A stretch of 64,000 bases of DNA from an uncultured Actinomycetes bacterium (GTDB taxonomy: Bacteria; Actinomycetota; Thermoleophilia; Solirubrobacterales; 70-9). Below, piece after piece: positions 45,266 through 49,159 of this stretch (position 1 is its first letter; every line of letters begins with the position of its first letter). Made by a program: the position numbers and the translations under genes. Below the pieces are notes generated by a model that worked only from the letters and a program-made list of their open reading frames with translations, searched no databases and had not been told where the DNA came from. The stretch covers positions 39,212 to 103,211 of the forward strand of contig CALCIA010000137.1 in assembly GCA_937907435.1 (NCBI GenBank), read 5' to 3'.

Positions 45266-45286
45266 ACTCCTACGTTGCGTAGGAGT
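45266..45286. promoter_or_regulatory. palindromic operator site S15 (best copy)
   Basis: ACTCCTACgttgcGTAGGAGT, extending to the perfect 10+5+10 palindrome ATACTCCTAC-N5-GTAGGAGTAT (45264-45288). TATAGT follows, then TTG 45303. Confidence 0.8.
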
Positions 45287-45302
45287 ATAGTTCCGGCTCC
45301 TC

Positions 45303-45728
45303 TTGAATCCCACTCGGAAGCGCAACTTTCGGCTCGCCGCCGCACTCGCCACCGCCGTTCTCCTCTCGGTGGCCCTCGCCTACACCAGCTTCAACGCGTC
45401 GGCTTCCGACGTCACGGCCGGACAGCTCCTGGCGATGGCCCGTCCGGGCCAGAGCTACGAGCTGGCCGGAACCGTGACCTCGGCGCACCGTGCCGGCGAC
45501 ACCCTCTTCTTCCGCATCCGCGATCCGAAGCGGGCCGCGGTCTCGGTCCCCGTCCGCTACGCCGGCTCGGTCCCCGACCCGTTCCGGGTCGGCCGCGCGG
45601 TGGTCGTCACGGTCCGCGAGGCGGGCCCGCGGTTCGTCGGCGAACCGAACACGCTGACCACCAAATGCCCCTCGAAGTTCAGGGCCGAAGGCGAACCCGA
45701 CGGGACCGGCCCCGTGCTCGGGCGATGA
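45303..45728 (+). CDS. ccmE: CcmE-like heme chaperone, Cys variant (CPSKF instead of HxxxY)
   Basis: N-terminal anchor. OB-fold-like core (YELAGTVTS...FFRIRD...VPVRYAGSVPDPFRVGRAVVVTV). C-terminal LTTKCPSKF. Confidence 0.8.
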   Translation: MNPTRKRNFRLAAALATAVLLSVALAYTSFNASASDVTAGQLLAMARPGQSYELAGTVTSAHRAGDTLFFRIRDPKRAAVSVPVRYAGSVPDPFRVGRAVVVTVREAGPRFVGEPNTLTTKCPSKFRAEGEPDGTGPVLGR

Positions 45729-45738
45729 GGCGCCGGGC

Positions 45739-47934
45739 GTGATCGAGCTCGGCGCCGTAGCCCTCGTCCTCGCCTTCCCGACGGCGCTCTTCGCGACCGC
45801 GGCGGCGCTGTGGGGCACCCGCGGCGACCGCCGCTTCGTCGAGTCCTCCCGCCGCGCCGTCTACGTGCTCGGCGGTCTGCTGACGCTCTGCATCCTCGCC
45901 GTCGAGGTCGCCTTCGTCGACACCGATTTCTCGCTGAAGCTAGCGGCCGACTACACCTCGACGACGACGCCGCTCTTCTACCGCCTGGTCGGCATGTACT
46001 CCAGCCAGGAGGGCTCGCTGCTCCTGTTTGCGTGGGTGCTCTCGCTGGCCACCTCGCTGGCCCTGAGAAGGACTCGCAACCGCCATCGGGAGATCGTTCC
46101 GTGGGCGACCGCGGTGCTGGCCGGGCTGGCGTCCTTCTTCACCGGGCTGATGCTGTTCGACGCCAACCCGTTCGCCCGGCTCGACCCTGCGCCCGCGCAG
46201 GGTTTCGGGCTCGAGCCACTGCTCCGTTATCCGGAGATGGCGATGCACCCCCCGCTCCTCTACTCGGGCTATGTCGGCTTCGCGATCCCTTTCGCCTTCG
46301 CGATCGGGGCCCTGATCACGCGGCGCCTCGACGCCTCCTGGCTTCGCTCGACCCGGCGCTTCGCCCTGATCGCCTGGGTCTTCCTCGGCCTCGGCCTCAT
46401 CTTCGGCTCGCGCTGGTCCTACTCGGTACTCGGCTGGGGCGGCTACTGGGCCTGGGACCCGGTCGAGAACGCGGCGCTGATGCCCTGGCTGGTCGGGACG
46501 GCGTTCCTGCACTCCAGCATCGTCCAGGAGAAGCGCGGGATCCTCCGCACCTGGAACGTCGTCCTGATCTGCGCGACCTTCAGCCTGGCACTGCTCGGCA
46601 CCTTCCTGGTGCGCTCCGGCGCGTTGCAGTCGATCCACGCCTTCGGCGCGTCGACCGTGGGCGCTCCGCTGCTCGGCCTGATCGCCGTCGTCGTGATCGG
46701 CTCGACGCTCTTGATCGTCTCCCGGCTCGACGAACTGCGCGCCGTCAAGCGGATCGAATCGCTCGCCTCGCGGGAGGCGGTCTTCCTCATCAACAATCTG
46801 CTCCTGGTGGGGCTCGCGGCTGTCGTCTTCTGGGGCACCTTCTTCCCGCTCATCTCGGAGGCTGCGACGGGTCAGAAGGCCTCGCTCGCCGCCCCCTGGT
46901 TCGACCGCTACGCGGCGCCGTTGGGGATCCTCCTGGTGCTGTTCACCGGCATCGGCCCGCTGTTGGCCTGGGGACGCGTCAGCCGCGGCGAGCTCAGGCG
47001 GCTGCTGGCCGTCCCGGCCTTGGTCGCGCTGCTCGTCGGGCTCGCCCTGCTCGCGTTCACCGATGCCGGCTCGAAGCCGCTCGCCTTGCTCACCTTCGTC
47101 TGCGCCGCCTTCGCGCTCGCCGGGATCGTCGGGGAGTTCGCGCGCGGAGCAGCGGCCCGCCGCTCGCTGGTCGGCGGCTCATATGCGGCGGCGCTGGGAG
47201 GCATGGTCGTGCGGAACCGGCGCCGTTACGGCGGCTACATCGCCCACGCCGGGATCGCGATCCTCTTCGTCGCCGTCGCCGCCTCCTCGAGCTTCCAGTC
47301 CGGTGCCATCGTGCGCCTCGGTCGCGGCCAGAGCACGCAGGTCGGCGGCTATCGATTCACCTACACGCGGCCGACCGTCTCGGTCGACCAGGCCGAACAG
47401 CGGCTGGCGCTCGGCTCGGTGGTGAAGGTCACCCAGGACGGCAGGCCGGTGACGACGCTGCACCCGGCCCGCCTCTACTACTCGACCGCCGCGCCGAGCG
47501 AAGGGGCCGCGCTGCGGGGCTTCTTCGAAGGCACCGTTAACAGCCAGATCGGCCGTCAGACGGGCGTCGAGCGCGACCTCTGGACGGCGATGAACCCGGA
47601 CCTCAGCCGCTTCGAACCGTTCATAACGGGATTCGATCGCCGCCTCGACCGACTCGCCGCCAAACTCCCGGCGAACGACCCGCGCGTCGGCGCCCAGCTC
47701 AGCTCGCTCGAGGGCATGGCCATCAATGTCGTGCAGCGGCGCTACATGGCCGACCCGCCGCCCGCAGAATTTCGGATCAACGTCTTCCCCTTCGTCGTCT
47801 GGCTCTGGATCGGCGCCGGGGTCGCCGCGGTCGGTGGCCTGATCGCGATCTGGCCCGCACCCGAGGCGCGCCGCCGGCGCGTCTCGGGACTGGCCGCGGC
47901 CCGGCTCGGCCGCGAGTCGCGTGTGGAGACGTAG
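45739..47934 (+). CDS. ccmF: CcmF/NrfE-family cytochrome c heme lyase subunit
   Basis: 731 aa polytopic. WGGYWAWDPVENAALMPWLVGTAFLHS (WWD domain), conserved His residues. Confidence 0.92.
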   Translation: MIELGAVALVLAFPTALFATAAALWGTRGDRRFVESSRRAVYVLGGLLTLCILAVEVAFVDTDFSLKLAADYTSTTTPLFYRLVGMYSSQEGSLLLFAWVLSLATSLALRRTRNRHREIVPWATAVLAGLASFFTGLMLFDANPFARLDPAPAQGFGLEPLLRYPEMAMHPPLLYSGYVGFAIPFAFAIGALITRRLDASWLRSTRRFALIAWVFLGLGLIFGSRWSYSVLGWGGYWAWDPVENAALMPWLVGTAFLHSSIVQEKRGILRTWNVVLICATFSLALLGTFLVRSGALQSIHAFGASTVGAPLLGLIAVVVIGSTLLIVSRLDELRAVKRIESLASREAVFLINNLLLVGLAAVVFWGTFFPLISEAATGQKASLAAPWFDRYAAPLGILLVLFTGIGPLLAWGRVSRGELRRLLAVPALVALLVGLALLAFTDAGSKPLALLTFVCAAFALAGIVGEFARGAAARRSLVGGSYAAALGGMVVRNRRRYGGYIAHAGIAILFVAVAASSSFQSGAIVRLGRGQSTQVGGYRFTYTRPTVSVDQAEQRLALGSVVKVTQDGRPVTTLHPARLYYSTAAPSEGAALRGFFEGTVNSQIGRQTGVERDLWTAMNPDLSRFEPFITGFDRRLDRLAAKLPANDPRVGAQLSSLEGMAINVVQRRYMADPPPAEFRINVFPFVVWLWIGAGVAAVGGLIAIWPAPEARRRRVSGLAAARLGRESRVET

Positions 47935-47941
47935 GCAGGAG

Positions 47942-49159
47942 ATGTCGAAGCGCGGAAGGTCCGGGGTGCGCAAGAAGGGTGGGGCCGCGAGGCGGAAATC
48001 GAATCGCCCCAATCCGCCGAAGCCGACGACCACGCGCGCCGAGCGCCCGGCGGCGGGCACCAAGGCGGAGGACCGTGGCGGCTGGCGTCGGGAGGTCCTG
48101 GCCGAGGTCCTGCGGCCGACCTGCTGGTTCGATCCGGGAGAGGGGGAGGGCGCCCCTCGCTCGCTGACCATCTCCTTCACCGGAAGGCGGCTGGACGTCA
48201 AGGGCAAGCCGCGCGCGGGCGACAGATTCGTCCAGGCACAGATGGTGGAGGGCGTCGTCCCGGGCTCCGGTCCGGTCGCGGTGACCACCGAGGTCCGAGG
48301 GATGAATCCCGGCGAGTGGGAGGTCACCGCGGCACCATCCGCGAGGCTCTGCCGGAGCCGTCCGCTCCATGCTCTTGCGGCGGCGGAGGGATCCGGTCAC
48401 GTCTTGTGGCCGCGGAGAGTCCGGCCCCGTGCGGCCCGGACCGAGAGACTAGCCAGCCAGATACGCCCCTGGGCGCCGATCCCCGGGGTGCATCCGGTGA
48501 GCTGGGGGGTGCTGGTCGGCCTGGGCGTCCTCGTGGGCCTCGTCGTGCAGGGGCTCCTCCTCTCGCGTGCCGGAGAGGACATCGGTGCGGCGCTCTTCGT
48601 GTCGGCCGCGGCGGTCGTCGCCGGTTGTGCGGGCGCGAAGGCCTGGTACGTCGTCGTCCAGCACGGGCGGCGGTTCGACGGCTGGTGTGTCCAGGGCGCG
48701 ATCCTCGGAGGTGGGATCGCGGCCGGCATCGTTCTCCTGAGCGGGTCGGCGATCCACGCGGGCGCCTATCTCGATGCCACCGCCCCGGGGCTGATGCTCG
48801 GGATGGCCGTCGGCAGACCGGGCTGCTTCCTGGCGGGCTGCTGCTACGGCCGGCCCACCGCGTCCCGCTGGGGGATCTGGTCGTCGGACCGTTGTGTCGG
48901 GATCCGACGGGTGCCGACCCAGCTGATCGAAGCGGCGCTCTGCCTGGCGATCGGGTTGGTGGCGCTGGTCCTGGCGCTGGTCGAGGGTCTGGACGGCTCG
49001 GGGCTACTTCTGGCTGGAAGCCTGGCCGCGTTCGTCCTCGGCAGGCAGATGATCCTGCCCTACCGTGCGCAGCCGCGGCAGACCTCCTTCGGCCGGCCCG
49101 CGACCATCGTCCTGGCGGCGGTCACCTTGATCGCCTCGGTCGCGATCGGTCTGCGCTGA
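47942..49159 (+). CDS. Lgt-family (diacylglyceryl transferase-like) membrane protein with about 170-aa basic N-terminal extension
   Basis: C-terminal half has GRPGCFLAGCCYGRPT...WG...RRVPTQLIEAAL (Lgt-family variant motifs). The N-terminal half is basic and beta-rich with no match I recognise. Confidence 0.7.
   Translation: MSKRGRSGVRKKGGAARRKSNRPNPPKPTTTRAERPAAGTKAEDRGGWRREVLAEVLRPTCWFDPGEGEGAPRSLTISFTGRRLDVKGKPRAGDRFVQAQMVEGVVPGSGPVAVTTEVRGMNPGEWEVTAAPSARLCRSRPLHALAAAEGSGHVLWPRRVRPRAARTERLASQIRPWAPIPGVHPVSWGVLVGLGVLVGLVVQGLLLSRAGEDIGAALFVSAAAVVAGCAGAKAWYVVVQHGRRFDGWCVQGAILGGGIAAGIVLLSGSAIHAGAYLDATAPGLMLGMAVGRPGCFLAGCCYGRPTASRWGIWSSDRCVGIRRVPTQLIEAALCLAIGLVALVLALVEGLDGSGLLLAGSLAAFVLGRQMILPYRAQPRQTSFGRPATIVLAAVTLIASVAIGLR

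Follow-up and report, generated by a model that had tools for sequence, protein, structure and literature searches.

A paralogous heme lyase operon with an Lgt-fold membrane protein lies in a predicted PetRP-like regulon of an uncultured Solirubrobacterales bacterium

A 64,000-nucleotide stretch of DNA from an uncultured Actinomycetes bacterium of the order Solirubrobacterales (contig CALCIA010000137.1, assembly GCA_937907435.1), hereafter called the window, carries at positions 45264 to 49159 a palindrome followed by three co-directional genes. These genes, named ccmE2, ccmF2 and lgtX, encode a heme chaperone and a heme lyase of cytochrome c maturation (Ccm) System I, and a membrane protein with the fold of the prolipoprotein diacylglyceryl transferase Lgt. 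The operon is a paralogous heme lyase module inside a putative regulon that resembles PetR/PetP, a pair formed by a BlaI/CopY-type repressor and a membrane protease. In our estimation, there is a probability of about 0.6 that the surrounding island carries an acquired, derepressible spare heme-ligation module, consisting of CcmE2, CcmF2, a CcmF tail protein and TlpA2, that acts as a back-up under stress. The LgtX family is the newest part of the finding.

The three genes are considered a single operon because their intergenic gaps do not exceed 10 nt. For lgtX, a GTG start at 47921 overlaps ccmF2, while an ATG start at 47942 lies 7 nt past the ccmF2 stop. All three open reading frames (ORFs) are intact and retain their motifs. 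The palindrome upstream of ccmE2 is perfect, as the original prediction stated, and is unique when up to three mismatches are allowed, with 0 matches expected in shuffled sequences. Its right arm extends into a -10-like TATAGT (45285-45290), 12 nt upstream of the ccmE2 start. A methyltransferase gene is convergent toward the 3' end of the operon, and a terminator scan of positions 45000 to 50400 gave a single terminator-like match, inside lgtX and on the wrong strand.

The ccmE2 operator belongs to a family that is visible only through the core CTAC-N5-GTAG. The idea of one long operator shared by every dyad was dropped, as a search with the complete 25-mer and three mismatches returned the ccmE2 site only. 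The core, in contrast, occurs eight times in the window versus 0.17 expected, and just 10 times in the other 4.66 Mb, with poorer arms. The consensus in the window is CCTAC-N5-GTAGG (Table 1). All eight sites are positioned 6 to 20 nt upstream of gene starts and overlap a -10-like hexamer, and several of the genes behind them look leaderless. The unit behind the operator at 50137-50149 comprises the gene for the CcmF tail and a methyltransferase gene.

The window also encodes a Penicillinase_R repressor, BlaI-1, that adjoins a membrane zinc protease, BlaR-1, and has one of these operators at its own gene, which constitutes a BlaI/BlaR1-type (PetRP-like) arrangement. BlaR-1 contains no penicillin-binding sensor domain. 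Homologous islands in other organisms carry the N5 dyad seven, seven and two times, and these copies include one ahead of ccmE and another adjacent to the repressor gene. The repressors of these islands are 76% and 69% identical to BlaI-1 and approximately 32% identical to BlaI-2, the product of the second Penicillinase_R gene in the window. In other genomes, too, the N5 operator travels with BlaI-1 orthologues. BlaI-1 is the proposed binder of the N5 operators, and BlaR-1 its proposed inactivator. A second operator class has the same CTAC and GTAG arms at a spacing of 8 and is found at four sites (16027, 32198, 36968 and 37824). The genes for CcdA, TlpA and a CcmI-N-like protein do lie near dyads, as originally predicted, but not each behind a dyad of its own: ccmE2, tlpA2 and the CcmI-N-like gene share the N5 type, whereas CcdA is accompanied by the N8 type.

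The window contains no ccmA-D or ccmH, in agreement with the original prediction. A search of the remaining assembly showed that contig C189 carries ccmA-ccmB-ccmC with a small CcmD-like gene, that contig C143 carries ccmH (PF03918, 67.1 bits) beside a gene for a CcmG-like thioredoxin, and that a second ccmE-ccmF pair is located on contig C41. No ResB, the marker of System II, was found in the assembly. The 40 genus and order relatives all have System I and possess one ccmF locus per genome (some fragmented), whereas the genome of the window has two. The island thus duplicates CcmE, CcmF, the CcmF tail and CcmG/TlpA, and includes neither the heme-loading CcmABCD nor CcmH. Since it has none of the latter, the spare module would have to use the housekeeping CcmABCD and CcmH. 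A weaker dyad, ACCTAC-AGGTC-GTAGCG, is present near the contig edge, where the housekeeping ccmH has its 3' terminus (C143:190-202), and may be due to chance.

These duplicates bear on the proposal that the operon is a self-sufficient reduced or variant System I, similar to archaeal CcmABCEF, in which the Cys-type CcmE and LgtX replace the missing parts. This proposal was prompted by the gaps in the window and by the Cys-type CxxxY CcmE of archaea and Desulfovibrio, where CcmH may be missing (PMC9084895). It is now largely refuted and scarcely credible. Nothing in the island could load heme onto CcmE, and a full ccm set, with ccmABCD and ccmH-ccmG, is located elsewhere in the assembly, which is one half of the finding that the original prediction named as refuting it. 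Moreover, the Cys-type CcmE is the single copy in all 29 order relatives read, the relatives make do with a single ccmF, and LgtX mostly occurs without any nearby ccm gene.

CcmF2 matches the Pfam families Cytochrom_C_asm and CcmF_C with 138.8 and 165.9 bits, respectively. The WWD motif and four histidines define an active heme lyase, and CcmF2 retains both, with WGGYWAWDPVEN, HPPLLYSGY, TAFLHS, RSGALQSIHAF and GGYIAHAG all present. The protein is 53% identical (BLASTP) to the housekeeping CcmF and lacks the C-terminal tail of the latter. The small CcmI-N-like gene, which is apparently leaderless and whose product matches TIGR03142 (E=1.6e-4), accounts for this part: the product is 62% identical over 61 amino acids to residues 723 to 782 of the housekeeping CcmF (E=2e-18). 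By this alignment, the gene is the housekeeping CcmF tail encoded separately. The housekeeping CcmF itself (C41:5106-7796, locus L006) is fused to the CcmI-N-like tail and continues into a long Asn/Gly-rich (NGNGNG) C terminus; the ccmF loci of genus relatives likewise have open frames of 800 to 920 amino acids.

A second lyase could also be dedicated to one co-induced client, in the manner of NrfEFG with its CxxCK sites or of the CcsA paralogues in Wolinella. Such client-specific CcmF/NrfE paralogues are well known, and the NrfE model TIGR03145 matches CcmF2 with 386 bits, although this is far under its cut-off of 927 bits. We nevertheless regard a dedicated lyase as quite unlikely. No likely-coding ORF of the 64-kb window contains CxxCH or CxxCK, leaving no client cytochrome, and NrfF/G and a second CcmH are lacking as well. 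In addition, the regulon partners are copper and envelope genes and include no respiratory enzyme.

CcmE2 consists of a single N-terminal membrane anchor, with the hydrophobic stretch FRLAAALATAVLLSVALAYTSF, and an OB-fold domain that matches PF03100 at residues 41 to 128 (34 bits; cut-off, 24.6). Its identity to the housekeeping CcmE encoded on contig C41 is 50%. The C terminus of CcmE2 reads ...TTKCPSKFRAEGE, and the tail motif KCPSKF was confirmed on the sequence, as were the downstream CcmF and the Lgt-family protein with its basic N-terminal region. When aligned, CPSKF coincides exactly with the CPSKY of homologues: the Cys is kept and Tyr is replaced by Phe. On this alignment, the tail appears homologous to the heme-binding motif. 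Among the 120 best database homologues of CcmE2, 109 have CPSKY and 11 have CPSKF.

However, the Phe turns out to be normal in the host order. CPSKF is found in 28 of 29 genomes of that order with a single housekeeping CcmE, spread over six families, as well as in the housekeeping CcmE of the genome of the window. As it is the norm for a sole CcmE, CPSKF does not mark a special island copy. The Phe is evidently a lineage-wide, functional variant of the known Cys-type motif, to judge from these sequences, and the heme-binding motif of CcmE2 is presumably functional too, given that Phe is normal in the order. In a tree of CcmE proteins, a supported clade (95/90) is made up of the island-type proteins alone; its sister is the CPSKY group, and the CcmE of the host order falls elsewhere. 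The tree, which is unrooted, requires at least two changes of the Tyr/Phe label. The spare heme-ligation module is probably a horizontal acquisition. The residue at this position is of wider interest, as Tyr134 of E. coli CcmE, which corresponds to it, has been proposed as an axial heme ligand (PMC10457321); a Tyr-to-Phe exchange in the Cys-type CcmE of a whole order bears on how heme is held in the chaperone.

The third gene of the operon encodes a protein with, in order, a basic disordered N terminus, a beta-sandwich (approximately residues 52 to 139) and seven transmembrane helices. LgtX matches the Pfam LGT family at residues 194 to 402 with 69.7 bits, has the motif GRPGCFLAGCCYG, and shows a basic region of about 190 residues ahead of this match. 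Against the NCBIfam Lgt models, the scores are 68.4 bits for NF000778 (cut-off, 334) and 39.6 bits for TIGR00544 (cut-off, 118.9). In a Foldseek search with the LgtX model, the top match was E. coli Lgt (5azb; probability of 1.00, target TM-score of 0.46). A profile of the LgtX family returned nothing among the PDB sequences at E values up to 1, and the structural link to Lgt thus comes from the fold search. Across the family, the N terminus is variable, basic and disordered, while the beta-sandwich of about 90 residues is conserved. This beta-sandwich belongs to no Pfam family, and a close structural match is lacking. Searched alone, the domain matched six short proteins, which look like fragments by their lengths, and it has no other known home.

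LgtX was aligned with two Lgt proteins, that of E. coli and the canonical one of the window. In the E. coli sequence of this alignment, the motif positions G142, Y26 and R239 agree with the published numbering. LgtX keeps R143, G154, E202, R239 and R246 and carries the exchanges N146C, N149A, E151C, E243L and H103Q. Residues N146, E151 and E243 (E. coli numbering) are those reported as essential in Lgt by Pailler 2012 and Mao 2016. The five LgtX family members aligned have C at the first two of these positions and L or F at the third, while the canonical Lgt of the window keeps all three residues. Based on the five exchanges, LgtX does not belong to the known type of diacylglyceryl transferase, despite its database name. 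The seven-helix part of the family contains the invariant cysteines C256, C302, C307 and C308, within DGWC and GRPGCFxAGCCxGRPT. The retained arginines suggest that LgtX may still bind a phospholipid head group, and the cysteines hint at thiol or Cu(I) chemistry.

The orientation of LgtX in the membrane also seems to differ from that of Lgt. None of 111 family members has a hydrophobic segment before the first transmembrane helix, and a signal sequence is absent. In 23 members, the loops carry a mean of 16.6 Lys and Arg residues on the N-terminal side and 2.1 on the other side, whereas two canonical Lgts are biased oppositely. From this bias and the positive-inside rule, we infer that the 'active-site' face and the beta-sandwich of LgtX are cytoplasmic, so that its predicted topology is inverted relative to Lgt.

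The altered active site of LgtX, together with the tight coupling of lgtX to ccmF in the window and on three related contigs, could point to a role outside maturation under stress, such as the handling or detoxification of heme at the membrane surface, in which LgtX would modify a lipid or a thiol. Such a role is unlikely. CcmE2 and CcmF2 retain all features for their normal job, TlpA2 and the CcmF tail gene are duplicated alongside them, and LgtX is also found in a similar island without ccmEF, beside Lnt, and alone. In outline, the suggestion in the original prediction of a module recruited under copper stress is supported: eight transcription units of a copper island, the operon among them, share one type of operator. 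A back-up for the same job fits better than recruitment 'for something else', because the products still look like ordinary maturation parts.

To what extent LgtX depends on ccmF can be read from its distribution. The family gave 366 matches in a word-indexed search, and a search of 1.84 billion representatives at E<=1e-30 gave 258 clusters. Among the GTDB species-representative genomes, 242 stretches from Actinomycetota and Chloroflexota contain relatives. At the 80 best loci, a BlaI-like gene is no more than 10 kb away from lgtX in 15 cases, a TlpA gene in 14, a CcmF gene in 8 and a copper ATPase gene in 7, whereas about 50 loci have none of these, e.g., the Streptosporangiaceae copies near scpAB. 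Direct adjacency of ccmF and lgtX is limited to the close kin of the window and one more distant metagenome-assembled genome. The Lgt-like gene is not tied to ccmF, since most family members lie elsewhere, without a ccm gene nearby; consequently, LgtX is not a Ccm component, though it is frequent in such islands. No LgtX orthologue was present among the 40 relatives, which gave only weak matches to ordinary Lgt. Clustering of the neighboring ORFs outside the islands was tried as a functional lead and set aside, as it yielded lineage-local synteny only (at most 12 of 55 loci).

Genomes of Amycolatopsis, Blastococcus and Pseudonocardia that are ResB positive, and thus use System II, have ccmF no more than 10 kb away from lgtX. 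The island of Amycolatopsis roodepoortensis DSM 46661 (L064:8214-17504) contains an Lnt-LgtX pair, TlpA and a complete His-type ccmA-B-C-E-F set (CcmE tail KHDENY), with a BlaI-like gene nearby. Because these hosts have ResB, their System I genes are accessory cargo that is not needed for basal maturation, which favors the back-up role. A further possibility is decaying cargo, i.e., an inert duplicate left by horizontal transfer. The adjacent acyltransferase-3/SGNH gene does look frameshifted, yet the three ORFs of the operon are intact with their motifs kept, and the operon and its operator are conserved in other contigs at 59 to 96% protein identity. Decay is accordingly very improbable.

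For the spare heme-ligation module, we infer the following course of events with regard to its signal, its protease step and its back-up role. BlaI-1 would occlude promoters, as the CCTAC-N5-GTAGG operators cover the -10/start regions. Copper, or copper-linked thiol stress, is the probable signal by analogy with PetR/PetP, in which PetP degrades the BlaI-family PetR and both protease and copper are needed (bioRxiv 10.1101/2020.07.31.226407). On this signal, the partner membrane M48 protease would destroy BlaI-1, and repression would probably be lifted from the copper ATPase, the canonical Lgt, the L,D-transpeptidase operon, tlpA2, the CcmF tail gene and ccmE2-ccmF2-lgtX. The cell would then make more copper exporter, along with fresh or alternative copies of envelope enzymes with exposed cysteines. 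Copper is known to impair the assembly of c-type cytochromes (PMC4600104; bioRxiv 10.64898/2026.10.17.759849) and lipoprotein acylation (PMC6538781), and the spare module would keep cytochrome c maturation running while copper attacks the exposed thiols of the pathway. LgtX, predicted to face the cytoplasm, would be co-induced with the module without being a Ccm part.

Several observations weigh against this reading. Copper as the signal is drawn from gene content and analogy, and the BlaI-1 sequence shows no obvious metal-binding cysteine motif. A strict sigma-70 scan of positions 45000 to 50400 returned zero promoters. The model gives no reason for an additional CcmE/CcmF to withstand copper better, and CcmE2 still uses a cysteine. 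Finally, the genome is a metagenome bin of 368 contigs and 4.7 Mb, in comparison to 1.9 to 4.0 Mb for 24 genus relatives, and the housekeeping contigs and the island might come from different cells. It is nonetheless likely that the island and the housekeeping ccm contigs are co-resident in one genome.

TABLE 1 Features of the window that are discussed in the text. The operator cores are of the N5 type.
Feature	Position	Strand	Description
N5 operator core	19229-19241		At start of HMA-type P-type ATPase gene (16670-19225, -)
N5 operator core	21126-21138		Just upstream of CPVC membrane protein gene (20592-21125, -)
blaR-1	21172-22137	-	Membrane M48-type metalloprotease; PF01435, 28.5 bits; HERGH
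blaI-1	22131-22535	-	Penicillinase_R PF03965, 85.5 bits; BlaI/CopY family
N5 operator core	22644-22656		Between blaI-1 and divergent M23 peptidase gene; autoregulation site
N5 operator core	25778-25790		Before operon 25791-28193: spermidine-synthase-like membrane protein and canonical Lgt
Protease of BlaI-2	30824-31927	-	M56/M48 type; near N8 sites
BlaI-2 gene	~31792-32130	-	Second Penicillinase_R gene; near N8 sites
CcdA/DsbD_TM gene	37129-37755	-	Beside N8-type dyad
N5 operator core	39363-39375		Before operon ~39390-42046: methyltransferase, C39-like peptidase, YkuD L,D-transpeptidase
N5 operator core	42083-42095		CTACGATTTGTAG; 13 nt upstream of tlpA2 ATG
tlpA2	42109-42798	+	CcmG/ResA-like thioredoxin, WCIPC; second copy besides ccmG on contig C143
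Operator before ccmE2	45264-45288		Perfect 10+5+10 palindrome, ATACTCCTAC-GTTGC-GTAGGAGTAT
ccmE2	45303-45728	+	Membrane-anchored heme chaperone, Cys type; Pfam CcmE
ccmF2	45739-47934	+	Heme lyase core; start 10 nt past ccmE2
lgtX	47921 (GTG) or 47942 (ATG) to 49159	+	Lgt-fold membrane protein
CcmF tail gene (CcmI-N-like)	49844-50134	-	96 aa; one transmembrane helix and helical tail
N5 operator core	50137-50149		CTACATTATGTAG; spacer with -10-like CATAAT; 6 nt upstream of CcmF tail gene GTG

Besides the HMA ATPase, the copper-type genes of the island encode CopC/CopD and a YHS domain. The ORF at 23841-24623 fuses an adenylate/guanylate cyclase domain to a YHS domain of the copper-binding type, and this fusion could link metal status to cyclic-nucleotide signaling. 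The CPVC membrane protein has 177 amino acids, a GCPVC motif and no Pfam family, and in 7 of the 80 species loci a relative of it is encoded no more than 10 kb away from lgtX. The Pfam match of the acyltransferase-3/SGNH gene (42860-45005) begins at profile position 66, and the missing N terminus is open in another frame, which fits a frameshift near 43140. Elsewhere in the genome, several cytochrome-type genes are duplicated, e.g., on contigs C197/C205 and C151/C190/C214. The bin may be a mixture of two populations or contain large mobile elements.

Taken as a whole, the locus suggests that soil actinobacteria answer copper with spare thiol-dependent envelope enzymes, namely, Ccm parts, TlpA, Lgt and an L,D-transpeptidase. 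Damage by copper to cytochrome c maturation and to lipoprotein acylation is known from Gram-negative model bacteria, and cultured strains of Amycolatopsis and Blastococcus, among them A. roodepoortensis DSM 46661 and Blastococcus goldschmidtiae DSM 46792, carry related islands. Two points stand out, namely, the CxxxF CcmE and the LgtX family. The latter, with at least 242 species, is publicly labeled 'prolipoprotein diacylglyceryl transferase'; without the catalytic residues and probably inverted, it is misannotated and represents a membrane enzyme yet to be explored. A more far-reaching and decidedly speculative picture, which we would not expect to hold in full, combines two ideas. In the first, LgtX would be a membrane-flipped descendant of Lgt that uses a cytoplasmic four-Cys site in a new way, for lipid-to-thiol transfer or for the handling of Cu(I). 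In the second, BlaI-switched accessory System I islands would provide a general bypass under copper stress, even in System II actinomycetes.

When compared to known systems, the operon shares with the Cys-type System I of Desulfovibrio and archaea (Allen 2006 and Goddard 2010, as cited in PMC9084895) an anchored OB-fold CcmE with Cys in place of His, followed by ccmF. It differs from the CxxxY type in having Phe where Tyr stands, and from the streamlined archaeal System I in that the genome, a metagenome bin, has CcmH and a CcmD-like gene. CcmE2 is an accessory paralogue. With respect to regulation, the closest known system is PetR/PetP of Synechocystis sp. PCC 6803 (bioRxiv 10.1101/2020.07.31.226407), which likewise pairs a BlaI/CopY repressor with a sensor-less BlaR-type membrane protease. 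However, PetRP controls four genes of the plastocyanin/cytochrome c6 switch, whereas the eight operators of the island stand before genes of copper export, thiol redox and cytochrome c maturation and before genes for lipoprotein and cell-wall enzymes. The two systems also have different operator sequences, and PetRP is copper dependent, a property that is assigned to the island by analogy. Similar to the paralogous lyases of the NrfEFG type, CcmF2 is a second CcmF-family lyase besides the housekeeping one. Unlike them, it brings its own CcmE, TlpA and split-off tail, has neither a special client in the window nor NrfF/G, and is predicted to be co-regulated with stress genes. LgtX, finally, shares the seven-helix fold of E. 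coli Lgt (5AZB), from which it is set apart by a signal-less N-terminal beta-sandwich, four invariant cysteines and a reversed bias of loop charge.

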